Positions 1,489 to 60,902 of a stretch of DNA of 64,000 bases are shown here, in pieces. A program made the translations under genes and the position numbers. The stretch lies in NCBI RefSeq assembly GCF_000027125.1, contig NC_017626.1; one strand, 5' to 3'. This stretch comes from Escherichia coli 042 (lineage in GTDB: Bacteria; Pseudomonadota; Gammaproteobacteria; Enterobacterales; Enterobacteriaceae). Each line of letters begins with the position of its first letter. Within the stretch, counting starts at the first letter, position 1. The notes under the pieces were generated by a model that was not told the origin of the DNA, made no database searches, and worked only from the letters and a program-made list of their open reading frames with translations.

Positions 1489-2670
1489 ATGCATAACTCC
1501 CCCGCAGTCTCCAGCGCGAAATCGTTTGACCTGACCTCGACGGCGTTTTTAATCGTTGCCTTTCTCACCGGTATTGCGGGCGCTCTGCAAACCCCGACAC
1601 TCAGTATTTTTCTTACCGATGAAGTACATGCCCGTCCGGCGATGGTGGGATTCTTCTTTACTGGCAGCGCTGTCATTGGGATTCTGGTCAGTCAGTTTCT
1701 CGCCGGGCGCTCTGATAAGCGCGGCGATCGCAAATCGCTGATTGTCTTTTGCTGCCTGTTAGGCGTGCTGGCCTGCACCCTTTTTGCCTGGAATCGCAAC
1801 TACTTTGTTTTGCTACTCGTTGGCGTCTTTCTTAGCAGCTTTGGCTCGACCGCTAACCCGCAAATGTTTGCCCTTGCCCGTGAACATGCTGACAAAACCG
1901 GACGTGAAGCGGTGATGTTCAGCTCTTTTTTACGTGCTCAGGTTTCACTGGCATGGGTCATTGGCCCGCCGCTGGCTTATGCCTTAGCGATGGGTTTCAG
2001 CTTTACGGTAATGTATCTGAGCGCAGCGGTAGCGTTTATTGTTTGCGGCGTGATGGTGTGGCTGTTTTTACCGTCGATGCAAAAAGAGCTTCCGCTGGCG
2101 ACCGGCACGGTTGAAGCGCCGCGCCGTAACCGTCGCGATACGCTGCTGCTGTTTGTCATTTGTACATTGATGTGGGGCTCGAACAGCCTGTACATCATCA
2201 ACATGCCGCTATTTATTATCAACGAACTGCATCTTCCCGAGAAACTGGCCGGTGTGATGATGGGGACCGCCGCCGGGCTGGAAATCCCGACCATGTTGAT
2301 TGCCGGATATTTCGCCAAACGTCTGGGTAAGCGCTTCTTAATGCGCGTTGCCGCCGTGGGTGGCGTCTGTTTTTACGCAGGAATGCTGATGGCGCATTCA
2401 CCTGTCATTCTGTTGGGCTTGCAGCTGCTAAATGCTATTTTTATTGGCATTCTGGGCGGCATCGGGATGCTCTATTTTCAGGATCTGATGCCCGGTCAGG
2501 CAGGTTCAGCCACCACGCTCTATACCAACACTTCGCGCGTGGGCTGGATCATCGCAGGATCAGTGGCGGGCATCGTCGCCGAGATCTGGAATTATCACGC
2601 TGTGTTCTGGTTTGCGATGGTGATGATTATCGCCACTCTGTTTTGCTTACTGCGGATTAAAGATGTTTAA
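1489..2670 (+). CDS. setB: sugar efflux MFS transporter SetB
   Basis: 393-aa ORF, multi-helix hydrophobic profile, N-terminus [25 protein letters not shown]..., divergent from fruB as in K-12. Confidence 0.9.
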
Positions 2671-2921
2671 GGCGCGGTCAGCATTTCCAGATCGATAAGC
2701 CAGGTCATTGCCTGCTGACGCGAGTTACCGCACATTTCAGCGCTGGCTTGTAAGCCCGCACAAACTTTCGGTCGCAGTGGCGAGGTGAAAATTTTACAGC
2801 GTTGCTGTTCATCAAGCTGAATGCAGGGCGTATTGGCGGGCTTGCCATCTGGCATACCGGGAATAGGGCTGGAAATTGAAGGGGCAGTGCAACACGCCCC
2901 GCAACCCGGACGGCATTCCAT
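2667..2921 (-). CDS. yeiW: UPF0153 cysteine-cluster protein YeiW
   Basis: 84-aa product from the internal start [28 protein letters not shown]... of the 128-aa track ORF 2667-3053; Cys-rich; position between setB and yeiP. Confidence 0.7.
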
Positions 2922-3075
2922 ACGTTGTTCTCTTAAGGTTAACCACCGGATTGATGAGCGCGCACAGTACCACCTTTTTTGCACCAGCAAAAGTGCGAAT
3001 ACCACTTGCCCGAAAGGCCCGTCGCGAGTACTTTGTCGCGATATTTTTGACATTTTCGACTACAGGAATTTTTCG

Positions 3076-3648
3076 ATGCCAAGAGCGAACGAAATTAAAA
3101 AAGGTATGGTACTGAATTACAACGGCAAACTGCTGCTGGTTAAGGACATTGATATTCAGTCGCCCACTGCCCGCGGTGCCGCTACGCTGTACAAAATGCG
3201 TTTTTCTGATGTCCGTACCGGGCTGAAAGTAGAAGAGCGTTTCAAAGGTGATGATATCGTTGACACCGTGACGCTGACCCGCCGTTACGTTGACTTCTCC
3301 TATGTCGATGGCAACGAATATGTCTTTATGGATAAAGAAGACTATACCCCGTATACCTTCACCAAAGATCAGATTGAAGAAGAGTTGCTGTTTATGCCTG
3401 AGGGCGGCATGCCGGACATGCAGGTGCTGACCTGGGACGGTCAACTGCTGGCGCTTGAGCTGCCGCAGACCGTTGATCTGGAAATCGTTGAAACCGCACC
3501 AGGCATCAAAGGGGCATCTGCCAGCGCCCGTAACAAACCGGCGACATTGAGCACTGGTCTGGTGATTCAGGTACCAGAATACTTAAGCCCGGGAGAAAAA
3601 ATTCGTATCCATATCGAAGAACGCCGTTATATGGGTCGTGCTGACTAA
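3076..3648 (+). CDS. yeiP: elongation factor P-like protein YeiP
   Basis: 190-aa product starting [22 protein letters not shown]... at the ATG at 3076; the track ORF from 2821 is an upstream extension overlapping yeiW. Confidence 0.9.
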
Positions 3649-3668
3649 CTTCAGCCGCATGCAGAAAA

Positions 3669-3694
3669 GGGATAGCTCAGGCTGTCCCTTTTTT
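3669..3694 (+). terminator. rho-independent terminator after yeiP
   Basis: Hairpin gggatagc/gctgtccc (one G-U pair) followed by a T6 run. Confidence 0.6.
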
Positions 3695-7604: not shown

Positions 7605-8171
7605 ATGGTCAAATCTCAACCGATTTTGAGATATATCTTGCGCGGGATCCCCGCGATTGCAGTAGCGGTTCTGCTTTCTGCATGTAGTGCAAATAACACC
7701 GCAAAGAATATGCATCCTGAGACACGTGCAGTGGGTAGTGAAACATCATCACTGCAAGCTTCTCAGGATGAATTTGAAAACCTGGTTCGTAATGTCGACG
7801 TAAAATCGCGAATTATGGATCAGTATGCTGACTGGAAAGGCGTACGCTATCGTCTGGGCGGCAGCACTAAAAAAGGTATCGATTGTTCTGGTTTTGTACA
7901 GCGTACATTCCGTGAGCAATTTGGCTTAGAACTTCCGCGTTCGACTTACGAACAGCAGGAAATGGGTAAATCTGTTTCCCGCAGTAATTTGCGTACGGGT
8001 GATTTAGTTCTGTTCCGTGCCGGTTCAACGGGACGCCATGTCGGTATTTATATCGGCAACAATCAGTTTGTCCATGCTTCCACCAGCAGTGGTGTTATTA
8101 TTTCCAGCATGAATGAACCGTACTGGAAGAAGCGTTACAACGAAGCACGCCGGGTTCTCAGCCGCAGCTAA
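7605..8171 (+). CDS. mepS: NlpC/P60 peptidoglycan DD-endopeptidase lipoprotein MepS (Spr)
   Basis: 188 aa, lipoprotein signal ending LLSACS, catalytic-Cys region GIDCSGFVQ. Confidence 0.92.
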
Positions 8172-8215
8172 TAAACCGTTTGGATGCAATCCCTTGGCTA
8201 TCCTGACGAGTTAAC

Positions 8216-24119: not shown

Positions 24120-25364
24120 ATGGCAAGAAAGGCGACCCCACTCACCACCACACAGATCAAAGCAGCTAAACCAGCGGAAAAAGAATACACCTTACAGGAT
24201 GGCGGCGGGCTTTTTCTCGTCATTAAGCCATCTGGTTCGAAACTATGGCGATTCAACTACTATCGACCATCGAACAAAAAACGAACAATCATTAGTTTGG
24301 GATCGCTCGATGAAGTCTCCCTGGCTGATGCCAGAAAACGCCGTAGCGAGTACAGGACGTTAATTGCGTCAGGGATTGACCCACAGCATCACGAGCGGCA
24401 AAAACGCGAAGCAGAGGCCAGAAGACAGGGCAACACGTTCGAAAATGTGGCCGCATCGTGGTACGAAATGAAAAAAAACCAGAATCTCGCCCACAATACG
24501 ATCAAGGACATCTGGCGCTCGCTAGAGAAATATGTATTCCCGTATATCGGAAACACACCGATAGATACTCTCACCGCTCGCCGCTTTGTTGAGATACTCA
24601 CGCCCATCAAGACACGTGGCAACCTGGAAACACTGAAACGCGTTTTACAGCGCATCAATGAAGTGATGGATTTTGCTGCCAACAGTGGACTGATTGACAT
24701 CAACACCGCTGCGAACGTCCGCAAGGCATTCCCTTCCCCCACCAAAAAACACATGCCAACCATCCGACCAGAACAACTACCGCAGCTAATGCACGATTTA
24801 TCGATCGCCAGCATAGAACGGCAAACCAGATTGCTGATTGAGTGGCAGTTGTTAACCGCAACCCGTCCAGCCGAAGCCTCCGCCGCACGGTGGGAAGAAA
24901 TCAACCTTGATGCGGCAACATGGACGATACCAGCCGGACGCATGAAGATGCGCCGTGATCATGTGATCCCTCTTTGCGCTCAGGCGATGGCAGTGCTTGA
25001 AGCCATGAAGCCGATTAGCGCACGAAGGGAGCATGTTTTCCCAAGTCTTAAAAATCCAGTGCAACCAATGAGCAGCCAGACAGCAAACGCAGCATTACGG
25101 CGAATGGGTTACACTGGTGTACTGGTATCTCACGGGCTACGCGCCATATTCAGCACAGCGGCGAACGAAGAAGGATTTGAGCCGGACGTAATCGAGGCCG
25201 CACTCGCACACGTGGACACGAACGAAGTTAGACGGGCATACAACCGAAGCAACTACCTGGAAAAACGTAAAGTGTTAATGTGCTGGTGGGGTGATTTTGT
25301 GGAAGCAGCCTCAACCGGAACAACCATCGCCAGCGGGCACAGGGGATTACGCGGAATAAAATAA
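24120..25364 (+). CDS. int: P4-family tyrosine integrase
   Basis: 414 aa; N-terminal arm-binding-type region (KEYTLQDGGGLFLVIKPSGSKLWRFNYY...), C-terminal catalytic region with HGLRAIFST and a tyrosine near the end (RAYNRSNY); adjacent to a tRNA gene in the same orientation. Confidence 0.85.
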   Translation: MARKATPLTTTQIKAAKPAEKEYTLQDGGGLFLVIKPSGSKLWRFNYYRPSNKKRTIISLGSLDEVSLADARKRRSEYRTLIASGIDPQHHERQKREAEARRQGNTFENVAASWYEMKKNQNLAHNTIKDIWRSLEKYVFPYIGNTPIDTLTARRFVEILTPIKTRGNLETLKRVLQRINEVMDFAANSGLIDINTAANVRKAFPSPTKKHMPTIRPEQLPQLMHDLSIASIERQTRLLIEWQLLTATRPAEASAARWEEINLDAATWTIPAGRMKMRRDHVIPLCAQAMAVLEAMKPISARREHVFPSLKNPVQPMSSQTANAALRRMGYTGVLVSHGLRAIFSTAANEEGFEPDVIEAALAHVDTNEVRRAYNRSNYLEKRKVLMCWWGDFVEAASTGTTIASGHRGLRGIK

Positions 25365-25417: not shown

Positions 25418-25616
25418 GTCTCTTTACTGTCTCATTTTGAGAAATATTTAAAATTCTTTTTATGTTAGAAAATTAAAAAATAACCAATCACATAACTCTT
25501 ATTAAATAATTCTTGACTTGCTTTTTTATAGATTTGTATTCTTTTTATATGTTTTTACATGTTTACCGTCATTTTCATTCAAAAAGCGGTATTTTACTGT
25601 CTATAGGAGAAATAAG

Positions 25617-25808
25617 ATGAGGGCTATTCTTTTACGACCAGAGGTCAAGGCCTTGCTACGCATTAAATCTGATTCAACCCTAACGGAGATGGTTAACAAA
25701 GGCGGGTTCCCCAAAGGATTCCGTATCGGGCTGCGTCGCATTGGCTGGTATGAAGATGAGGTACTCGCCTGGTTGAAAGAACGTGAGAGAGAAACTCGTG
25801 AAGCATAA
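25617..25808 (+). CDS. alpA: AlpA-family phage transcriptional regulator / excisionase-like HTH protein
   Basis: 63 aa from the ATG at 25617 with an AGGAGA ribosome-binding site; MRAILLRPEVKALLRIKSDSTLTEMVNKGGFPKGFRIGLRRIGWYEDEVLAWLKERE has the AlpA-like pattern (...IG.R.IGW.E.EV..WL). Confidence 0.7.
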   Translation: MRAILLRPEVKALLRIKSDSTLTEMVNKGGFPKGFRIGLRRIGWYEDEVLAWLKERERETREA

Positions 25809-26266
25809 GTGTGATTAACGCTGGCCTGATTACTATCAAGCAACAAAACAATTAAGAGAGAACATTATAAATACTGGCAAAAATGCCCAAACAGGGGCAG
25901 GTTTTCGTTCAACCATAAAAAATTATGGCTGATGTTATTATTCAGTTCAAACCGTACGAACGAATTAATTGAACTAATAGCACTTCCGTTTTAAACGGAA
26001 ACGTACAATCGCATAGCTTAAACGACAAAAGAAATATGTTGCTTACGAATAAAACAAAGGCGACCGCAGAGGGTCGCCAGAAGGCATATATTAAACTTGA
26101 ATGCATCGCCAACAATGCCATATTTCCGGCTGGTGAGCAATGTGATTTGTGTGGTGGGCACACCTTCAACACATCCGACCACATGAGCAAGAAAACGGGA
26201 TATACTCACCAAATCCCTTATAAAACGGGGATCGGGATTACCACCCCGCTGGAGTTAACGGCGATA

Positions 26267-26290
26267 CAGACGCGCCACGCGTCTTTTTTT
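26267..26290 (+). terminator. candidate intrinsic terminator inside the alpA-icd gap
   Basis: cagacgcgccacgcgtc followed by T7 (GC stem gacgcg/cgcgtc, short loop), preceded by further stem-loops at 26058-26079 and 26226-26248. Confidence 0.5.
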
Positions 26291-26454
26291 GTATCGACGC
26301 ACACGCACGCCTTATCAATGGTGGGCTGTATGGGGCTGACTTCGGTCAGGCTGGTTTCCGTTAACACCAGTTGTGGTAACCCTGTACAGTCCACCGCCAG
26401 CGAGCTTACCACCTCCTGCGGTGGGTATATCCCAACGTTAACGGAGGCTGCCAA

Positions 26455-26694
26455 ATGGCTACTATCCCTGCCCTCGCACATACTCAGAACGCCTTTATCT
26501 GGCGCTTTATCATCGTTAATCCGAGTGATTCCCGCGTCGTTCACGTCGTGGCGTCAACCGAACAGGAAGCGCGTAACCGTTGTCCGTCCGGTTGTGTTGC
26601 CGTATTCGCTGCCCGTATTCGTCAGGGGGTAAGTCATGCTCAAGCGATTCCAGATAACCGCACGCGCTGTAAATCATCAAGGCCACGTTATTGA
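26455..26694 (+). CDS. Icd-like (host cell division inhibitor-like) small phage protein
   Basis: 79-aa ORF with a GGAGG ribosome-binding site 8 nt upstream; MATIPALAHTQNAFIWRFIIVNPSDSRVVHVVASTEQEARNRCPSGCVAVFAARI resembles the Icd-like small-protein family as I remember it. The 3' end overlaps the next ORF by 58 nt in another frame, so the true C-terminus is uncertain. Confidence 0.5.
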   Translation: MATIPALAHTQNAFIWRFIIVNPSDSRVVHVVASTEQEARNRCPSGCVAVFAARIRQGVSHAQAIPDNRTRCKSSRPRY

Positions 26695-26821
26695 TATTCG
26701 GCAAAACGTGAACGCCACCAGCGTTAATGCAGCTATAGCAATATTGAAAGAAGAGTTAATCGGCTGTAGGTTCACGCAGGTGATGATCCGTGCCGTAGTT
26801 GAAGTGTCGACTGTTCATTAA
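26636..26821 (+). CDS. hypothetical small phage-island protein
   Basis: 61-aa ORF with a strong GGGGGTAAG ribosome-binding site; MLKRFQITARAVNHQGHVIDIRQNVNATSVNAAIAILKEELIG...; no function recognised. Confidence 0.45.
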   Translation: MLKRFQITARAVNHQGHVIDIRQNVNATSVNAAIAILKEELIGCRFTQVMIRAVVEVSTVH

Positions 26822-26860
26822 TCTCATTAATACAGCTTTAACAAAAACGTAATTCGACAA

Positions 26861-27148
26861 ATGAAAGCAAAAAATTCTGGCTTTACTGCCAGCGGTAAAA
26901 CTCGTCCTAAATTCATGCACGGCGATATTTACCGCGATAAATACGGCAGCACGGTAATGATTAAGGGCGTGAGTGAACGACGCATTACCTACCGCCGTGA
27001 AGGATACAAATATGACTGCGTGATGCCTGTTTATCAGTTCCAGCGTGATTTTACGCTGGTGGATCATCGTGAAACCGTAAATCAGAACCGTGCAGCAAGA
27101 TACATCCGCAAAATCTGCGAAATGATGGTTACTGGGGGCAAGAAATGA
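26861..27148 (+). CDS. hypothetical protein, translationally coupled to the primase gene
   Basis: 95-aa ORF whose TGA stop overlaps the ATG of the downstream 712-aa ORF (ATGA); basic protein; no recognisable domain. Confidence 0.4.
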   Translation: MKAKNSGFTASGKTRPKFMHGDIYRDKYGSTVMIKGVSERRITYRREGYKYDCVMPVYQFQRDFTLVDHRETVNQNRAARYIRKICEMMVTGGKK

Positions 27149-29283
27149 AACGCGCACCGAATTTAAAGCACCAGCCGAAAGACAAAATGACGGAGGTGAT
27201 TATCTTTGCGGGTAGTGATGCCTGGGCACATGCGAAAGAGTGGAGCGAATGGGCCGGAAAGCATATTGCGGCAGATGATACACATCCAGTTATTCTTGGA
27301 CCGGAACAACTGGCGAGTCTGGCAGACACGCAAATCATCGACAAAGGGCGCTATTACGTGCGCGTTTATCGTGCTGGTGAAATATCAGAGCAGCACCTTA
27401 CACAGATAGCGACACTGCTTGCAGTGGCGGGTGTGAAGGAGGCGCGTTGCTACCGCAGCTTTGTTGATCAGCAGCCGGAGGACTGGACACCGCGCATGGC
27501 TGGACTGAAGGATGATGCGGAACGCGGTAACAGTCTGGTGATCAACCTTCCGGCGAAGACAAATTTCACCGGAAATTATGATGACGAATTAAAGCCTCGT
27601 GTTGAAAGTCGCGTCGATGGTGTTTTCTGGGTAACGCCCAAAGTGGACAAGCAGTCAGGCGAAATTATCCGGCCTGAGACGTGGTTATGTTCTCCGCTTG
27701 AACTACTGGGAACAGGAACAATCGGCAAAGAGCATTACCGCGTGATGCGCTGGAAAAAACCAGCAAACCATGAGGTCATTACAATGGCGGTCCCGTGCGG
27801 AGGCATTGGTGACCGTGACGGCTGGCGGTTGCTGAAAGACCACGGCCTTAACGTGACGACCAACGGCAAATACAGGGCTATCCTGGCTGACTGGATGCAG
27901 TTAAGCGGAAACCATGAGGAATGGCAGTTAAGCACAACAACGGGGTGGCATTTTGGTGCGTACATCATGCCGGATGGTTCGATCATCGGTGAATCAGAGA
28001 AACCCATCCTGTTTACCGGAAAAACTGCCGCTGTTAATGGCTATTCCGTGGCGGGAACAGCGGAGGGCTGGCGCGATACCGTGGCACGGCTGGCTGGTGG
28101 TAATCCGTCCATGATGCTGGGTGTGGCGGTATCGCTATCTGCACCATTAATCGGGCTGGTGGGTGCTGACGGCTTCGGGGTTCATCTTTTTGAGCAATCA
28201 TCAGCAGGTAAAACCACCACACAGAACATTGCATCAAGTTTATGGGGAGAGCCGGACGCGCAACGGCTGACCTGGTACGGAACGGCGTTAGGTATCGCCA
28301 ACGAGGCCGAAGCACATAATGACGGGCTGTTACCCCTGGATGAAATAGGCCAGGCCGGAAACGCACGGGAAGTGTCCACGTCGGCTTATACGCTGTTTAA
28401 CGGTTCGGGGAAATTACAGGGGGCGAAGGACGGCGGCAACAGGGAGATAAAACACTGGCGAACAGTGGCAATCAGTACCGGAGAAATGGACGTTGAAACA
28501 TTCCTCAAAAGTGAGGGGATAAAAGTCAAGGCTGGGCAGCTTGTCCGGTTGCTTAACGTGCCGATGGAGAAGTCCACGCAGTTTCACGAATACAGCACAG
28601 GAAAGGCGCACGCAGACGCGTTAAAGGATGCCTGGACAGCAAATCACGGGGCGGCAGGTCGTGAGTGGATTAAATGGCTAGCAGCCCACCAACAGGAGGC
28701 TAAGGACACGGTAAGGGCATGCCGTGAACGGTGGCGCAACCTGATACCGGAGAGCTACGGCGAACAGGTTCACCGCGTAGGGGAACGATTCGCCATACTG
28801 GAGGCCGCGCTTGTGCTGTCAGGCAATGTTACGGGCTGGGATGTTCAGGCGTGCCGTGATGCCATTCAGCATAACTTTAATGCCTGGGTGAAGGAGTTCG
28901 GCACGGGTAACAAGGAACACAGGCAGATTATTGAACAGGCAGAGGCATTTCTTACTGCCTACGGCATGAGCAGGTTTGCGCCTGTCAATTATGACCCTGC
29001 AAGCCTGCCGATTTCAGAACTGTACGGCTACAGGGAAAGCGAGGGGCGTTACGGTGAGCCTGTTTTGTTTTACGTCCTGCCGGAGCCATTTAAATCGCAT
29101 GTGGCGAAGGGATTTAACAAGGATGCCGTAGCAAGAGCCCTTCACGAAGCCGGAATGCTGAAAAAGCCAGCCAGCGGGGAAGGATGGCAAATCAGAACAC
29201 CACGTCTTAAGCACATGAAGGGGGCACGACTAAGGGTGTACGGCCTTTTACTTGCACAGGATCATGATGATGAAGGTGGTTAA
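27145..29283 (+). CDS. primase/helicase-like replication initiation protein (P4 alpha-like; P-loop NTPase core)
   Basis: 712-aa ORF; central Walker A-like FEQSSAGKTTTQN followed by acidic DE-type motifs (LPLDEIG); the size and the iterons immediately downstream fit a satellite replication protein. An alternative start at 27187 (MTEVIIFAG) is possible. Confidence 0.65.
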   Translation: MKRAPNLKHQPKDKMTEVIIFAGSDAWAHAKEWSEWAGKHIAADDTHPVILGPEQLASLADTQIIDKGRYYVRVYRAGEISEQHLTQIATLLAVAGVKEARCYRSFVDQQPEDWTPRMAGLKDDAERGNSLVINLPAKTNFTGNYDDELKPRVESRVDGVFWVTPKVDKQSGEIIRPETWLCSPLELLGTGTIGKEHYRVMRWKKPANHEVITMAVPCGGIGDRDGWRLLKDHGLNVTTNGKYRAILADWMQLSGNHEEWQLSTTTGWHFGAYIMPDGSIIGESEKPILFTGKTAAVNGYSVAGTAEGWRDTVARLAGGNPSMMLGVAVSLSAPLIGLVGADGFGVHLFEQSSAGKTTTQNIASSLWGEPDAQRLTWYGTALGIANEAEAHNDGLLPLDEIGQAGNAREVSTSAYTLFNGSGKLQGAKDGGNREIKHWRTVAISTGEMDVETFLKSEGIKVKAGQLVRLLNVPMEKSTQFHEYSTGKAHADALKDAWTANHGAAGREWIKWLAAHQQEAKDTVRACRERWRNLIPESYGEQVHRVGERFAILEAALVLSGNVTGWDVQACRDAIQHNFNAWVKEFGTGNKEHRQIIEQAEAFLTAYGMSRFAPVNYDPASLPISELYGYRESEGRYGEPVLFYVLPEPFKSHVAKGFNKDAVARALHEAGMLKKPASGEGWQIRTPRLKHMKGARLRVYGLLLAQDHDDEGG

Positions 29284-29308: not shown

Positions 29309-29443
29309 CTTGTCCCACCTGTCCCAACCTGTGAGAAACACACATAACATACTGAATTATATTGGGTAATATCAGAAAAAGTGGGACAAGAGCGGGACAA
29401 GTTAAGGTGATTTTGGGACAAGTTAGGAGCATTTTGGGACAAG
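29309..29443. repeat. iteron cluster 1 (GGGACAAG repeats), putative origin of replication
   Basis: Inverted copies CTTGTCCC at 29309-29316 and ctgtccca at 29319-29326, an AT-rich spacer, then four direct GGGACAAG copies at 29383-29390, 29394-29401, 29415-29422 and 29436-29443; immediately downstream of the primase gene. Confidence 0.6.
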
Positions 29444-29980: not shown

Positions 29981-30517
29981 ATGACTACACTGACTATTAG
30001 CAGAAAACCGAAAGGCATTTACGGCATACCACAGAAAAAGACACAGACGACACAGCAGCAGGATAAAACCACATCAGCGCATAAAGTGATACCCGGCAAT
30101 CAGAACGCACAGCAGAGCCGCAAACAGAAGCCCACAGGGGCGACACCGTGGCGGCATATGACCAAACGCCAGGGCAAAAACCGCAGGCGCGTTAACCGTC
30201 TTATTGAACTATGGCCTGAATTATTCAGCCTGGAATCACCGAAGCCGCTTAAGGTAGGAATATTTGAAGACCTGATACAGGATATTGCCGTCAGGGCGCT
30301 GGCTTTTGGGTCAGGGGCATTACGTGCGGCGCTAGCATCTTATGCTCATTCTCCGCGTTATTACCGTGCCTTAATGGCTGGTGGCGTGCGTTACGATCTG
30401 AATAGCCAGCCATGCGGCGAGGTGACACAACAGGAACAGCAGGACGCGGAAGCACGACTGATGGCACTGAAAGAGAAGCGCAAACGTAAGTCGAACAAGG
30501 AGCAAGCTGGCGTATGA
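29981..30517 (+). CDS. FinO/ProQ-family RNA-chaperone-like protein
   Basis: 178 aa; basic Q/K-rich N-terminus, then LIELWPELFSLESPKPLKVGIFEDL...RYYRALMAGGVRYDLNSQPCGEV, which resembles the FinO/ProQ N-terminal domain signature; assignment from memory only. Confidence 0.5.
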   Translation: MTTLTISRKPKGIYGIPQKKTQTTQQQDKTTSAHKVIPGNQNAQQSRKQKPTGATPWRHMTKRQGKNRRRVNRLIELWPELFSLESPKPLKVGIFEDLIQDIAVRALAFGSGALRAALASYAHSPRYYRALMAGGVRYDLNSQPCGEVTQQEQQDAEARLMALKEKRKRKSNKEQAGV

Positions 30518-30798
30518 GTATGATTCACGACAGCAAAGCGGAAGATCTGGAGGCTAAAGGCCTGTACCGGAGAGCGGCAGCCCGATGGGCTGAGGTCATG
30601 CAACAGGTGAACACCGATAAGGAGCGCGAACAGGCAGTAAAGCGTCGCGCGAAATGTATCCACAAGGCAGCACGTTCGCCCGTCATGCTGGATAATTTCG
30701 GGGGCTTGAGAGAGGCAGCAAACCGCACACAGGCGGATATGGGGATAGAAATCGCAAAATCTGTCTGGCGGAACTACCAGACAGACAAGGTTTTATAG
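30514..30798 (+). CDS. PerC-family transcriptional regulator-like protein
   Basis: 94 aa; AEDLEAKGLYRRAAARWAEVM matches the PerC/Pch-type motif (AE.LE..GLWRRAA.RW..VM); start overlaps the previous stop (ATGA coupling). Confidence 0.55.
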   Translation: MSMIHDSKAEDLEAKGLYRRAAARWAEVMQQVNTDKEREQAVKRRAKCIHKAARSPVMLDNFGGLREAANRTQADMGIEIAKSVWRNYQTDKVL

Positions 30799-31597: not shown

Positions 31598-31717
31598 CTT
31601 GTCCCACCTCCCCCCCCAACTTGTCCCAAAACAGCCTAGACTTGTCCCACCTTACCTAATTTATTTCTAACAAAATCAATTTGTTAGGTGCTGGTGGGAC
31701 AGGTGGGACGGGTGGGA
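31598..31717. repeat. iteron cluster 2 (CTTGTCCC x3 and GGTGGGAC x3 flanking an AT-rich spacer), putative second cis-replication site
   Basis: CTTGTCCC at 31598-31605, 31618-31625 and 31640-31647; inverted GGTGGGAC(A/G)G at 31692-31699, 31701-31708 and 31710-31717; followed by (TA)n at 31729-31740. Confidence 0.6.
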
Positions 31718-32197: not shown

Positions 32198-34789
32198 TCA
32201 GAACGTCCAGACCACACCCGCCTGAGTATTCCACGGCGATTCTACCCCTGCGCCATTGCCATAACTGACAGACAAATGACCGCTTAACGTCGGGGTAAAC
32301 GATGACCTTATCCCAGCCTGATAAACGCCACTGGTTCCAGCCACATCATTATTAAATTTGCCATCGTCATTAACTTTCACCTGGTTAGAATCGGCGTATT
32401 CCTGACGCACGGCGGCTTTCAGCCAGGGTTCCAGCGTCGTACCGTTTTGCAGGTCCATGTGATAGCTTACCGCCGTTCCCGCTTCAGCCCGTAATATGCG
32501 GGTATTTCCCACATCCGCGCGCATGCCGTTTGATAACGTGTAGTCCTGACCATCAGTGGTAAAGCCGGTAAAGGCCAGATAGGGTCTAACACTCCACAAT
32601 CCGTCAACCCAACGGAACCCGCTCTCGACATGAGCACCCGCGCCGTTACTATTGTAATCGCCAAACGCTGTTGCCCCATTACTCATCTTGCCATGGATGG
32701 TGTTGGCAAAACGGTCAACTTTCACCACTCCATCAACATAGGCACCGTTCTGATGCTCCCAACCGGCATAAGCCCCCAGGGTGTAGCTATCGATATTGCC
32801 TTTGCCGCCGCGATCAAAACCAATATCAGAATGAGAGTAACCAAAGAACAAGCCGCGAATTGTGCTGCTTTCTTCACGGGAGAAACGGCTATCGATACCG
32901 AGCGTCAGGCCCGTCAATGTTTGCTCAAAGCCAGCTCCCGCATCAGTGGTCACGTTGTTGCGGGTGTTAATTGCCGAACTCCACATCGCCGTATCGTAAT
33001 TAACGCCTTTTACGCTACCAAGACGCTCACGCACGGTGTCCAGTTCTGCATCAAATACCAGCGGTTGTGCTGCCGCCATATTCAGCACATCAGTGGTTGA
33101 AGGGGTAATTTGCGCGCGATTCTCTGCCAGACTCCAGCTATGGTTGCCATTATCCAGCAAGGTATATTCATACGTACCGATATCAACAACGCCTCCGGCA
33201 TTGCCCAACGTAAATGCAGCATCACCGCCGCCCGTTGTTACCAGTGTAAGGCTATCTCCTGCTGCCGGGCTGGCACCGGTGTCCGTCACGAATATTTTGA
33301 AATCACCTGTTGCCTGACCGGTGACGTTGAGCTGATCGCTCTGATGATTAGCCATATCGGTACGCATATAAAAATTGCCGTTTCCCGACAGGGTATTGGT
33401 GGTCAACGTAATGAAATTTTCCGCACTTGCCGTCACTGATGAACGAGTCACTGGCTCAGCCATCATAATCACATTTGCGCCGGACATCGCAAGGTTGGCT
33501 AAGTTGAGGCGAGTGTTTTGGTTCGTCGTACTGTTATCGGCAATGATGGTCCATGCGCTATTTTCGAGCGAAACATCCGCTTTGCTGGTATCCACGGCAC
33601 CATGCGTTCTAAAAGAAGCGCCCTCAGAAACCACGACCTTACCCACCAACATAGCGGGTGCATAATTTATTTGCGGCTTCATGACCTCAAGAATGCCATC
33701 ATTCCCTCTGACTGAAACGTTAACCATTGTGCCAGCCCAGACATTAGCGCGACCATTGTTGATAACCATATTTTCAGAGATGGCTTTAGAGGAATACGTT
33801 ATACTTCCATTCTGATCTGATCGACCGAGATCATATACCGCATTTGCCTGCACTCTCGTACCAGTATCCTTTCCCAGCGATTGCATAGTGGCATGCTCAT
33901 CAAGGATAGTATCAATGGCCTGCGTGTCCTCCATAACAATGAGCCCGGAACCATCATCCAGTTCATAATTTTTTGACACACCATCTTTTATACTAAATTG
34001 GCCTTTACTGTTTGTACCACTCACTTCCAGCGCATTCGTTGAGACAATTAATTGTCCGCCTGCTTTTTTATCAACGCCAGTTGCAGTCCCGCCATCCATA
34101 ACCTCCAGTAAGCCGCCACTATCCACAGTGGTATTATAAGCGAAGTCATTTTCTTCAACTCGCAAACTTCCGCCGTTTTCCAACAGCATATTATTAGCAA
34201 TACCATCCTTGATATCGAACTGACCGAGACGGTTTGTTCCGAATACCTCCATGGCCCGCGTGGTTGTTTTAATCGCACCGCCGGCTTTCTGATCTACCGC
34301 AAATGCTAATCCCCCCTCTTTAACCTCCAGTAATCCTCCCTTTTCGATAGCGGCAAAGACGGTAATCCCATCTTTTTCAATAATTAAGCGCCCGCCTTTA
34401 ATGGTGGTATCATTCGCTGCGCCATAAACCTGTAGCACACCATTATTAAGGGTAGTCTGGTTTGCCGCGCCACCCATTTGAACAATTTGATAACCGTCAT
34501 TTAATACTGAGTATTCTGCGGTGCCATTCATTTCAATGTACTGATACCCTCCGTTAATTTCAGTATTACTACTTACACCAAATTCTTTTATATGCTGTTC
34601 TCCGCCAGGATTGATTTTCGTATTATTGGCGGTCCCATAAACCAGCTGGATATCTTTTTCCAGGACAACACCATCAACTGTCTCACCATACTCAACAGTT
34701 GATGCCAATGCTATGGGTGAATATAACGCTGTAGCCACCAGAACAGATATTGCGGAACGACAAAGAGAAACAGAACCAGATTGATGCAT
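32198..34789 (-). CDS. yejO: AIDA-I-type autotransporter adhesin YejO (apparently intact)
   Basis: 863-aa ORF; signal peptide, Gly/Asn/Thr-rich repetitive passenger (repeats of ...GG.L.V..GG.A.....), C-terminal beta-barrel ending in the aromatic residues ...VVWTF; located between proL and narP. Confidence 0.85.
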   Translation of the reverse strand: MHQSGSVSLCRSAISVLVATALYSPIALASTVEYGETVDGVVLEKDIQLVYGTANNTKINPGGEQHIKEFGVSSNTEINGGYQYIEMNGTAEYSVLNDGYQIVQMGGAANQTTLNNGVLQVYGAANDTTIKGGRLIIEKDGITVFAAIEKGGLLEVKEGGLAFAVDQKAGGAIKTTTRAMEVFGTNRLGQFDIKDGIANNMLLENGGSLRVEENDFAYNTTVDSGGLLEVMDGGTATGVDKKAGGQLIVSTNALEVSGTNSKGQFSIKDGVSKNYELDDGSGLIVMEDTQAIDTILDEHATMQSLGKDTGTRVQANAVYDLGRSDQNGSITYSSKAISENMVINNGRANVWAGTMVNVSVRGNDGILEVMKPQINYAPAMLVGKVVVSEGASFRTHGAVDTSKADVSLENSAWTIIADNSTTNQNTRLNLANLAMSGANVIMMAEPVTRSSVTASAENFITLTTNTLSGNGNFYMRTDMANHQSDQLNVTGQATGDFKIFVTDTGASPAAGDSLTLVTTGGGDAAFTLGNAGGVVDIGTYEYTLLDNGNHSWSLAENRAQITPSTTDVLNMAAAQPLVFDAELDTVRERLGSVKGVNYDTAMWSSAINTRNNVTTDAGAGFEQTLTGLTLGIDSRFSREESSTIRGLFFGYSHSDIGFDRGGKGNIDSYTLGAYAGWEHQNGAYVDGVVKVDRFANTIHGKMSNGATAFGDYNSNGAGAHVESGFRWVDGLWSVRPYLAFTGFTTDGQDYTLSNGMRADVGNTRILRAEAGTAVSYHMDLQNGTTLEPWLKAAVRQEYADSNQVKVNDDGKFNNDVAGTSGVYQAGIRSSFTPTLSGHLSVSYGNGAGVESPWNTQAGVVWTF

Positions 34790-56810: not shown

Positions 56811-56954
56811 TTTTTAAGATTATTGCGGAATGGCGAAATAAGCACCTAACATCAAGCAATAATAATTCAAGGTTAAAATCAATAACTTATTCTTAAGTAT
56901 TTGACAGCACTGAATGTCAAAACAAAACCTTCACTCGCAACTAGAATAACTCCC

Positions 56955-57047
56955 GCTATCATCATTAACTTTATTTATTACCGTCATTCATTTCTGAATG
57001 TCTGTTTACCCCTATTTCAACCGGATGCCTCGCATCCGGTTTTTTTT
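56955..57047 (+). ncRNA. micF: MicF antisense sRNA
   Basis: gctatcatcattaactttatttattaccgtcattcatttctgaatgtctgtttacccctatttcaaccggatgcctcgcatccggtttttttt: recognisable MicF sequence with intrinsic terminator, divergent from ompC. Confidence 0.9.

Positions 57048-60702: not shown

Positions 60703-60897
<195 letters not shown>

Positions 60898-60902
<5 letters not shown>

Follow-up and report, generated by a model that had tools for sequence, protein, structure and literature searches.

The three small open reading frames at 26455-27148 of the window (the whole stretch of 64,000 nucleotides from Escherichia coli 042 that was analysed) quite likely open the replication ('left') operon of an AlpA-type satellite island of about 8 kb, an operon that has a P4-like layout and is proposed to be gated by RNA. 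The isrK-like and C4 RNA genes of this operon are, as far as can be judged from sequence, its probable gate. The three frames, called here ORF1, ORF2 and ORF3 (79, 61 and 95 aa), had been given at the same coordinates in a preliminary description of this DNA and were reproduced by a mechanical ORF list. The features on which the analysis is based are the following:

23837..23910, + strand: tRNA-Pro, the integration site of the island, at its left end (Rfam tRNA match, 54.9 bits)
24120..25364, + strand: tyrosine integrase, ORF of 414 aa (integrase domain-containing protein in the annotation of a 99%-identical island)
25614..25808, + strand: AlpA/Vis-type HTH regulator (Pfam Phage_AlpA, 26.7 bits, cut-off 21)
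26036..26632, + strand: long 'ash'/Eta-like reading frame that spans the two RNA genes (Pfam Phage_ASH match, PF10554)
26213..26289, + strand: isrK-like leader RNA (Rfam RF01394, 52.9 bits, gathering score 50)
26314..26401, + strand: C4/CI-type antisense RNA (Rfam RF01695, 77.7 bits, gathering score 45, all 87 model positions)
26406..26446, + strand: downstream target region (a2, TTACCAC, 26406-26412; b2, GTTAACGGA, 26437-26445)
26455..26694, + strand: ORF1, Icd/Kil-family protein, 79-aa stop-loss allele (NCBIfam NF033153, 61.9 bits, cut-off 25)
26636..26821, + strand: ORF2, lineage-restricted protein of 61 aa in the slot of P4 epsilon (phrog_3672)
26861..27148, + strand: ORF3, DUF4222 protein of 95 aa (Pfam PF13973, 85.1 bits, gathering score 27)
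27145..29283, + strand: DUF927 replicase of 712 aa (Pfam DUF927, 160 bits; phrog_1139 'DNA primase', E = 2.7e-166)
29309..29435, no strand assigned: candidate replication origin with iteron-like repeats of families D1 and D3 (CTTGTCCCACCT and the inverted GGGACAAGTTA)

The island is flanked by tRNA-Pro and a yejO-like gene, and in near-identical islands RefSeq places tRNA-Pro between yejM and the integrase. The operon runs from the AlpA/Vis gene through the isrK-like leader, the C4/CI antisense RNA, the Icd/Kil gene, a variable small gene and an accessory gene to the replicase. The ORFs 3' of the replicase encode SSB, ProQ/FinO and PerC proteins, plus two without Pfam matches, and extra copies of the D1 repeat are found at 31598 and 31641. 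The AlpA/Vis-type gene occupies the position of P4 orf88/vis, which lies upstream of the isrK/C4 module of P4 in the same orientation. The framework that defines Gram-negative PICIs (Fillol-Salom et al. 2018) is recognised in the island, that is to say, int, alpA and a replicase with iterons, all co-oriented, a specific att site and a size of about 8-15 kb. [quoted passage not shown] The island contains int, alpA and the PF10554 match; psu, delta, sid and an alpha-type (Pox_D5/Toprim) replicase were not found in it, ORFs shorter than 69 aa having been scanned in part. Capsid, terminase or recognisable packaging genes were not found among the island ORFs scanned. The locus is largely ordinary and involves no new principle.

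The isrK-like RNA carries two upstream target boxes, a1 (TTACCAC, 26238-26244) and b1 (GTTAACGG, 26254-26261), as well as an intrinsic terminator-like site at 26268-26284 followed by a T-run at 26285-26290. In the C4 RNA, box b' (TCCGTTAAC, 26357-26365) is located in a hairpin loop of the minimum-free-energy fold and box a' (GTGGTAA, 26373-26379) is unpaired. Box a' is complementary at 7/7 positions to TTACCAC on both flanks of C4, and b' at 9/9 positions to the downstream b2 and at 8/9 to the upstream b1. The downstream box b2 overlaps the Shine-Dalgarno sequence of ORF1 (GGAGG, 26442-26446), 9 nt before its ATG. The duplex between the C4 loop and its target has 13 bp and -19 kcal/mol and spans 26436-26450; this loop-level duplex is the informative one, the energy of the full-length C4-target duplex being indistinguishable from that obtained with shuffled targets (z = -1.8). 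The isrK-like and C4 RNA genes, which lie directly upstream of the three ORFs, are absent from the preliminary description.

These pairings co-vary. In a survey of 13 loci the b' box is different in every one and the a' box occurs in 10 versions, and every cognate target stands at a fixed position. Cognate pairs of b' and downstream target match at 8.46 of 9 positions (6.06 for non-cognate pairs), and those of a' and target at 6.85 of 7 (5.17 for non-cognate pairs). In a 93%-identical island that also sits at this tRNA-Pro site, b' differs and the targets carry compensating changes. The E. albertii version of b2 reads GTTACAGGA, compared with GTTAACGGA in the window. This survey of 13 loci and the survey of 16 loci used for the junctions were hand-assembled and do not constitute a census, because a contig scan with an Icd alignment yielded only six loci. 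Since the C4 loop pairs with the Shine-Dalgarno sequence of ORF1 and the boxes co-vary, RNA immunity of the P1/P4 type is the likely mechanism, and by analogy with those phages C4 likely gates the translation of ORF1 and, via coupling and polarity, all downstream genes.

P1 C4 and P4 CI repress. The mechanism proposed for the island would start at a promoter just upstream of 26213, of which only a -10-like TATACT is visible, producing the leader transcript. Most transcripts would end at the isrK terminator, and the read-through would be processed to C4 RNA, as in P1 and P4. The a' and b' boxes of C4 would then pair with a2 and b2, b2 covering the Shine-Dalgarno sequence of ORF1; of this step, the complementarity and the co-variation are those described above. 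With ORF1 untranslated, transcription would terminate prematurely, as in P1 immI and P4 timm, so that ORF2, the DUF4222 gene and the replicase would be off and the island quiescent. When transcription outruns C4, or when it comes from the AlpA promoter with the ash/Eta-like frame translated, ribosomes would reach the junction GGGGGTAAGTCATGCTTAA and restart at ORF2, and further on the ATGA would couple DUF4222 to the replicase. In P4, termination is controlled by CI, seqA, kil and eta (PMC10111431). In the region upstream of isrK, no sigma-70 promoter was matched at the scan threshold; the TATACT mentioned, at 26201-26206, was spotted by eye only. The only sign bearing on the putative Rho-dependent termination is a C-rich and G-poor stretch at 26380-26500.

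The same RNA genes could also be read as a positive control of the kind described in the isrK-orf45-anrP region of the Salmonella prophage Gifsy-1, where the short IsrK-like RNA (terminated here at 26268-26290) would act in trans on an inactive read-through transcript, opening its structure and activating the first ORF and the genes coupled to it, repression not being the main mode. The island resembles Gifsy-1 in having an isrK-like RNA with terminator, a nucleotide-conserved region and coupling into the downstream gene. The isrK model match at 26213-26289, with its terminator, speaks for this possibility, as do two observations in Gifsy-1 itself: IsrK supplied in trans raised the translation of the coupled gene more than 100-fold via an AUGA-overlapping upstream ORF (PMC4825925), and 'orf45' is conserved in nucleotides and not in amino acids (PMC4825925), which suggests that orf45 lies over a C4-like RNA. 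However, the isrK score is barely above its threshold (52.9 vs 50), and the co-varying boxes belong to the C4 loop and the Shine-Dalgarno region, which fits repression by P1 C4 and P4 CI (PMC10111431). The systems differ, since trans activation and an antirepressor cargo are reported for Gifsy-1 (PMC4825925) whereas an Icd-like first gene and a replication module are found here. Activation as the main mode is considered rather unlikely, and the two modes could coexist.

The first gene under the putative C4 gate is a member of the Icd/Kil family. The NF033153 match spans aa 14-57 of ORF1, and P4 Kil scores 76.1 bits with the same model; the identity of ORF1 is 41% to P1-type Icd (core) and 33% to P4 Kil. 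BLASTP of ORF1 against the old P4 'cI ORF' gave no match, and it was the NF033153 HMM that did link ORF1 with Kil. P4 Kil kills cells when over-expressed. By analogy with P1 Icd, ORF1 probably blocks cell division via FtsZ. The P1 protein binds FtsZ, and its core consists of residues 12-51 (PMC11897509).

ORF1 and ORF2 overlap by 59 nt (26636-26694), one more than the 58 nt counted previously, and they owe the length of this overlap to a stop-loss allele; it is no device for coupling. Icd/Kil proteins are expected to have about 60-73 aa and to end right after AAR(I/L)R..V..; the close relatives of ORF1 have 62 aa, and where the C-terminus of a family member is complete, the protein stops about 5-7 residues past the conserved AARIR. 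ORF1 has 79 aa because a T>C change at 26641 converts its stop codon TAA into CAA (26641-26643), a change that in the ORF2 frame is synonymous (CTT>CTC, Leu). The junction reads ATGCTCAA in the window vs ATGCTTAA in the XJ6.1 island (99% identical) and in the 93%-identical island. The 79-aa form is present on 167 contigs of a large collection, accessions of strain 042 among them, so it is no sequencing error; the 62-aa forms of the same 90% cluster account for 229 + 117 + 15 and further contigs. It would be extremely surprising if this overlap, physically present as it is in the sequence, worked as a tight or stoichiometric coupling device or were resolved by programmed frameshifting, given that it arises from one substitution synonymous in ORF2, that 0/40 complete RefSeq E. 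coli genomes carrying the junction have the window version (38/41 have exactly the TAA version) and that the 17-aa tail is covered by none of the 73 family matches. Besides, an ORF2 homologue of 48% identity retains ATGCTTAA, and past this junction the ORF1 frame there has a stop and no similarity. As the substitution shifts the termination of ORF1 to 51 nt past the ORF2 start, it probably weakens coupling.

What is conserved is a short junction. The end of the Icd/Kil gene and the start of the next one share 8 or 11 nt in 15/16 loci of the junction survey, which covers Escherichia, Pantoea, Cedecea, Hafnia, Pectobacterium and Klebsiella plus phage P4, and the gene that follows differs between loci. 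At the other end of the operon, ORF3 ends in an ATGA shared with the replicase start (27145-27148), as had already been noticed, and this 4-nt overlap of DUF4222 and replicase genes is present in 10/12 loci, with replicases of the DUF927, RepA-helicase and primase families. The conservation of the 8/11-nt and 4-nt junctions makes translational coupling plausible. The tight coupling claimed in the preliminary description is plausible in this form and not for the long overlap, which is not kept in homologues. Stoichiometric co-expression, also suggested there, is not the best reading, for ORF2 and ORF3 are separated by a gap of 39 nt without a Shine-Dalgarno sequence. The coding conservation in homologues on which the same description depended is indeed found: ORF1 and ORF3 score above their curated family cut-offs, and ORF2 shows a coding pattern of substitutions (see below). 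Taken with the conserved short junctions, these sequence data indicate that the gene arrangement exceeds chance.

ORF2 is, by the pattern of its sequence, a real coding gene. Compared with the 48%-identical homologue, which has equal length and the same junction, it shows 21/21/42 differences at codon positions 1/2/3. Its fold is predicted as beta-beta-alpha-beta (AlphaFold2, pLDDT 93.9, from only 10 sequences). Its relatives are restricted to 14 clusters among 5.8 billion proteins and five matches among 1.84 billion representatives, with none in 50,697 phage records and none in viral contigs. A match of 1,889 aa among the representatives is an FN3-repeat protein hitting a beta-hairpin motif and was set aside as spurious. 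In Pfam at E <= 1 nothing was found for ORF2 but a sub-threshold DUF3892 match. This scarcity of relatives, together with a frameshifted DUF4222 gene in one related locus (L002) and an island without recognisable packaging genes, could suggest an inert island in which ORF2, possibly along with ORF3, is a chance reading frame or a decayed remnant. Nevertheless, such an interpretation is highly improbable: length and junction of ORF2 are kept in a homologue of 48% identity, the differences being in excess at third codon positions, its predicted fold reaches pLDDT 93.9 from so few sequences, DUF4222 matches a curated Pfam model and has 372 homologues, and the reading frames of the operon are all intact in the window.

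As far as position and fold indicate, ORF2 is probably an island-specific effector. By position it resembles P4 epsilon, since it follows directly the kil-type gene with a start/stop overlap (ATGCTTAA in relatives). A relationship of ORF2 to epsilon or to PF25738 ('Derepression') was tried and rejected: BLASTP found nothing and the hhalign probability was 0.3%, whereas P4 epsilon itself matches PF25738 with 170 bits. The possibility that ORF2 is nevertheless a functional analogue of epsilon, an anti-repressor derepressing the helper prophage, with DUF4222 as a Cnr-like negative regulator of the replicase, is regarded as doubtful; the position and the epsilon-like junction geometry favour it, against which stand the dissimilarity of ORF2 to epsilon and that of DUF4222 to Cnr. 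With similar reserve it may be proposed that the slot after Icd/Kil is a general hypervariable cargo site with a fixed restart junction, ORF2 being a new anti-repressor or host-takeover factor and an analogue of epsilon. In such a tentative scheme the conserved Icd C-terminus would encode the Shine-Dalgarno sequence and the ATGnnTAA overlap, and each island would insert a helper- or host-specific effector; ORF2 would be one of them, with an eL20-like fold, confined to the island lineage and absent from the 50,697 phage records. The earlier suggestion that one of the small genes is a helper-phage derepressor or a host-takeover factor finds nothing in the analysis that shows either role for ORF2 or DUF4222.

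ORF3 matches the full 53-position domain of PF13973 at aa 16-68, and its architecture consists of a disordered N-terminus, an SH3/Tudor-like barrel and a C-terminal helix. From its position and fold, the DUF4222 protein is probably a replicase accessory protein. Its identification with P4 Cnr (orf106, DUF5375) was rejected, with a hhalign probability of 0.3% and no DUF5375 match in ORF3, while P4 orf106 scores 211 bits on DUF5375; that with P4 orf151 was rejected as well (hhalign probability 6.7%). The downstream gene had been called a primase, a name that agrees with PHROGs (DNA primase) only, the protein being DUF927 for PGAP and Pfam, in which DUF927 is its sole match. Its N-terminus is conserved (MK.APN.K.QP...).

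The Phage_ASH match of the long ash/Eta-like frame covers aa 58-147, that is, nt 26207-26476, the frame stops at the TAA in 26630-26632, 3 nt before the ORF2 ATG, and PGAP labels it as an ash-family or hypothetical pseudogene. The distance from C4 to the ATG is 141 nt here vs 142 nt in P4 and in two other loci (L013 and L014). In the lineage of the window, the ash/Eta-like frame and ORF1 are read in different frames, whereas in P4, L013 and L014 the former is the Icd/Kil frame; the kil/eta nesting of P4 therefore does not transfer exactly. The view that PF10554 (Phage_ASH) is a spurious translation of RNA genes was dropped, as in P4 the frame is the translated eta. According to the passage of PMC10111431 that cites Forti et al. 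1999, the P4 frame matching Phage_ASH is eta and it is translated, so the ash/Eta-like region is better called dual-use.

The left operon of P4 runs PLL-vis, PLE, seqA, CI RNA, seqB, kil/eta, epsilon, orf151, cnr and alpha. The island has in common with it the order and direction of the genes, the isrK-like and C4 Rfam matches upstream of kil, a first translated gene homologous to Kil/Icd whose Shine-Dalgarno sequence is the RNA target, a next gene starting 8 nt before the kil stop (in P4, epsilon is at 7888-8175 and kil ends at 8168) and a terminal replicase followed by iteron-like repeats. It differs in that the slot-2 protein is unrelated to epsilon, the protein before the replicase is DUF4222 instead of Cnr/DUF5375, the replicase is DUF927 whereas P4 alpha is Zn-ribbon/Toprim/D5, the Eta-like frame does not coincide with that of the Kil homologue, and no sid, delta or psu was found. 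The P4 analogy drawn in the preliminary description is upheld by position (Kil and Icd in the same model, the junction geometry of epsilon); no similarity of ORF2 to epsilon or of DUF4222 to Cnr was found. The immI region of P1/P7 (c4, icd, ant1/2) is similar in that the a'/b' boxes of C4 have complements upstream and at the ribosome-binding site of icd, the stop of the upstream ORF icd overlaps the next start, and co-varying boxes set specificity. On the other hand, the cargo of the island is a replication module and not the Ant antirepressor, the junction has 8 nt vs ATGA, and ORF1 is only 41% identical to P1-type Icd.

Gram-negative PICIs such as EcCICFT073, with their 'Bro zone', have the same order of int, alpA, Icd-like gene, small genes, DUF4222, replicase (4-nt overlap), SSB and PerC; the island of the window differs in that no capsid or terminase gene was found among its scanned ORFs. 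EcCICFT073 shares the framework of the island but carries a divergent YlcI/YnfO-type gene instead of C4/isrK, and in it no C4 or isrK match was found even at E <= 0.1. Since EcCICFT073 and other related islands keep the framework from the Icd-like gene to DUF4222 and the replicase without a C4/isrK match, the operon can do without the RNA gate. Because EcCICFT073 gave no C4/isrK match, C4 RNA was no longer considered as the missing repressor of Gram-negative PICIs in general.

Whether Gram-negative PICIs possess a master repressor has been called unclear by Fillol-Salom et al. (PMC6092414), and the Rfam C4 and isrK profiles match several of these islands (PMC10111431, 2023). The co-varying C4 RNA is a testable candidate for the master repressor of the islands of this subset, as hinted by Mageeney et al. 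(2023). The RefSeq labels, an 'ash family' pseudogene for the RNA region and 'hypothetical' for ORF2, mask what would be a complete RNA immunity switch of the P4/P1 type before the replication genes, and the site behind the conserved 8-nt junction, where the gene varies, is a place to look for small effectors directed at helper or host.

The reading best supported by the sequence is that a C4/CI-type antisense RNA would gate the ribosome-binding site of ORF1, the Icd/Kil-family gene, since both complementarity and co-variation are found for it. The features involved are listed below, together with those of the rest of the phage-satellite island.

Features of the island and its border (window coordinates)
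25973-26632: long open frame, first ATG at 26036, ending in TAA at 26630-26632
26213-26289, plus strand: isrK-like RNA (Rfam), directly upstream of ORF1
26314-26401, plus strand: full-length C4 antisense RNA (Rfam), directly upstream of ORF1
26357-26365: b' box in the C4 hairpin loop, TCCGTTAAC
26437-26445: downstream b target GTTAACGGA, exact complement of the C4 loop
26455-26694: ORF1, 79 aa (mechanical ORF list, as for the next three)
26636-26821: ORF2, 61 aa
26861-27148: ORF3, the DUF4222 gene, 95 aa
27145-29283: replicase gene, 712 aa
29309-29327 and 29394-29435: iteron-like repeats CTTGTCCCACCT, inverted GGGACAAGTTA, just downstream of the replicase gene
31598-31616 and 31641-31659: second iteron-like set, about 2.3 kb further on
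32198-34789, minus strand: 863-aa ORF beyond the island, followed by ccm genes

The b target overlaps a GGAGG sequence that precedes the ORF1 ATG by 9 nt, and the isrK-like leader holds an 8-nt copy of it. The a' box GTGGTAA (26373-26379) is complementary to TTACCAC, which flanks C4 on both sides. In the folded C4 RNA, b' is exposed in the loop, and the loop-target duplex comprises 13 bp (-19 kcal/mol). In a comparison of 13 C4 loci (the island lineage, two other E. coli islands, satellite phage P4, two P1-type phages and four Stx or lambdoid phages), the b' box was found in 13 different versions and the a' box in 10; their cognate sites keep a constant distance, +36 and +5, from the C4 end, and cognate box/target matches are better than non-cognate ones. 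In a 93%-identical island that also occupies this tRNA-Pro, the b' box differs and both of its targets have changed to match. Such co-variation of boxes and targets characterises the immunity RNAs C4 of P1/P7 and CI of P4; in P1, C4 blocks icd translation, hence there is no downstream ant expression.

In P4, CI brings about premature termination, which is counteracted by translation of the kil/eta region (PMC10111431). By extension from P1 and P4, polarity and translational coupling would then act on ORF2, the DUF4222 gene and the replicase gene; the stretch 26380-26500 is C-rich and G-poor, which is compatible with Rho loading but weak evidence for it. The opposite direction of control is a live alternative, as the same RNA module has been described as an activator in Gifsy-1 (PMC4825925). 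Gating of ORF1 by the antisense RNA is nevertheless the best-supported reading.

Conservation of a block around the target, GGAGGCTGCCAnnATGGCTAC (window 26436-26475 and the matching regions of comparison loci L017-L022), extends into the first codons, MAT-I/T-P..., and the block is common to Icd/Kil genes and to the Ant/Rha-type antirepressor genes found in Stx phages and other lambdoid phages. It therefore seems that the RNA module moves as a portable cassette together with the start of the gene it targets. The E. coli island L013 contains two tandem C4 RNA genes (2599-2686 and 3077-3164), which differ in their boxes and each have an Icd-like start to themselves; a CDS annotated as 'Icd-like' by RefSeq contains the second of them.

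All the ORF coordinates of the preliminary description were reproduced, as was the ATGA overlap between ORF3 and the replicase start (27145-27148). The ORF1/ORF2 overlap, claimed to be 58 nt, is 59 nt long. The observation is real, yet what stood out in it, the long overlap, is due to a stop-loss allele. When the window was aligned with a 99%-identical island of E. coli XJ6.1 and with the 93%-identical island, the junction was ATGCTTAA in both islands and ATGCTCAA in the window. A single T>C substitution at 26641 converts the ORF1 stop TAA into CAA and is synonymous in the ORF2 frame (CTT>CTC, Leu). Relatives of ORF1 are named by RefSeq 'host cell division inhibitor Icd-like protein', with 62 aa and an 8-nt overlap with the next gene. 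In complete RefSeq E. coli genomes, the version of the window occurs in none of 40 carrying this junction, and the TAA version was matched exactly in 38 of 41. The 79-aa form is a real allele, present on 167 contigs (strain 042 accessions among them), and 62-aa forms of the same cluster occur on 229, 117, 15 and further contigs. The 17-aa tail is covered by none of 73 family hits, and in a 48%-identical relative the ORF1 frame past the junction contains a stop and has no similarity.

Instead of the long overlap, whose conservation in homologs had been proposed as a check, relatives show a short junction. Of 16 loci (Escherichia, E. albertii, Pantoea, Cedecea, Hafnia, Pectobacterium, Klebsiella, a metagenome contig and P4), 15 have an overlap of 8 or 11 nt between the Icd/Kil stop and the ATG or GTG with which the next gene begins. 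The window, with 59 nt, is one of two exceptions. The GGAGG- or GGGGG-type Shine-Dalgarno of the next gene is encoded within the conserved Icd C-terminus, and the identity of that gene varies between loci. Of 12 loci, 10 have a 4-nt overlap between DUF4222 and the replicase start; the replicases, of DUF927, RepA-helicase and primase-family types, share the N-terminal motif MK.APN.K.QP. The operon, described as tightly coupled, is not uniformly overlapped, because ORF2 and the DUF4222 gene are separated by 39 nt without a Shine-Dalgarno sequence. Directly behind DUF4222, a near-identical N-terminus MK.APN(L/V)K.QP... is found in the three replicase types (window 27145-27190; L003, L005, L013-L016), which suggests a conserved block of DUF4222 plus replicase N-terminal domain with swapped C-terminal enzymes.

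The long frame crosses the RNA genes. In P4, L013 and L014 it is in frame with Kil/Icd, with a C4-to-ATG distance of 142 nt; in P4 it is the eta frame, modelled by Pfam as Phage_ASH. The window, L001, L002 and L007 have 141 nt instead, and therefore the long frame of the window is out of frame with ORF1. Its stop lies 3 nt before the ORF2 ATG. In relatives, therefore, both upstream frames terminate beside the start of ORF2, a position that the long frame alone has kept in the window. PF10554 (Phage_ASH) matches the frame spanning the isrK-like and C4 RNA genes (window 26207-26476; P4, L004, 8330-8704), and P4 epsilon (7888-8175) matches PF25738 'Derepression' instead. PF10554 is listed as the 'epsilon' marker for P4-like satellites (Moura de Sousa & Rocha 2021, PMC8628076), yet what it picks up appears to be the eta/CI immunity region and not epsilon. 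In L008-L012 (Pantoea, Cedecea, Hafnia, Pectobacterium and Klebsiella; about 2600-3690 in each), where no C4 or isrK match was found, the Icd-like domain terminates a frame open for about 300 codons upstream; instead of a small Icd, its product may be a genuine fusion of Bro/Ash and Icd (Eta-like).

ORF1 matches NCBIfam NF033153 (Icd-like) with 61.9 bits against a cut-off of 25, and it is 41% identical to a P1-type Icd and 33% to P4 Kil. Forti et al. are said to have recognised in 1999 that the last 65 codons of the old P4 'cI ORF' are Kil. These codons (MATTLTPSHPEF...) match NF033153 with 76.1 bits, and their identity as Kil is summarised in PMC10111431. P1 Icd binds FtsZ and has an active core of residues 12-51; its activity was apparently weakened by extra residues (PMC11897509).

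The analogy drawn with P4 kil, eta and epsilon holds by position, because P4 shows the same isrK and C4 Rfam matches, then kil, then epsilon, which starts 8 nt before the kil stop; ORF1 is the Kil homologue and ORF2 occupies the epsilon slot. It does not reach to the sequences: ORF2 has no similarity to epsilon or PF25738, nor DUF4222 to Cnr/DUF5375. As to what ORF2 and ORF3 do, the analogy is unsupported. In P4 the order continues with orf151, orf106/cnr and alpha, and the replicase family differs from that of the island. As for the 'primase' label, only PHROGs gives 'DNA primase', whereas Pfam and PGAP both give a DUF927 protein.

Upstream of the RNA genes lie tRNA-Pro and the genes for an integrase and an AlpA-type regulator, and on the far side of the replicase gene are those for SSB, a ProQ/FinO protein and a PerC protein. 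The 863-aa ORF is taken by us to be yejO from the K-12 map, and therefore the island is about 8 kb long. The first iteron-like set is a candidate replication origin, and the two-set arrangement recalls ori and crr of P4. The ProQ/FinO-family RNA-binding protein (87 bits) adjoins the PerC-family regulator (112 bits) at 29981-30798 and could be a chaperone of the antisense RNA. Outside the island, Rfam matches MicF RNA, two naRNA4/REP-type elements and an L25 leader (56954-57047, 60708-60898 and 20096-20121). With the strain 042 protein accessions, these landmarks assign the window to an E. coli chromosome, where it corresponds to the rplY-proL-ompC region.

The same framework is found in EcCICFT073, the model Gram-negative PICI: an Icd-like gene, four small genes, DUF4222, primase (4-nt overlap), SSB and PerC. 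EcCICFT073 has no C4 or isrK match even at E <= 0.1, and several other loci likewise lack such matches; thus the RNA gate would be one of several interchangeable control cassettes. It was unclear whether a PICI repressor exists in Gram-negative bacteria, and only Int, AlpA and Pri-Rep were distantly common to PICIs and P4 (Fillol-Salom et al. 2018, PMC6092414). C4 and isrK matches in Gram-negative PICIs have been on record since Mageeney et al. 2023 (PMC10111431), where both Rfam models matched several of these islands and a role in immunity was put forward from the parallel with P4. ORF2, an orphan with a predicted eL20-like fold, is, together with the conserved junction and its variable slot, the part of this system most worth following up.
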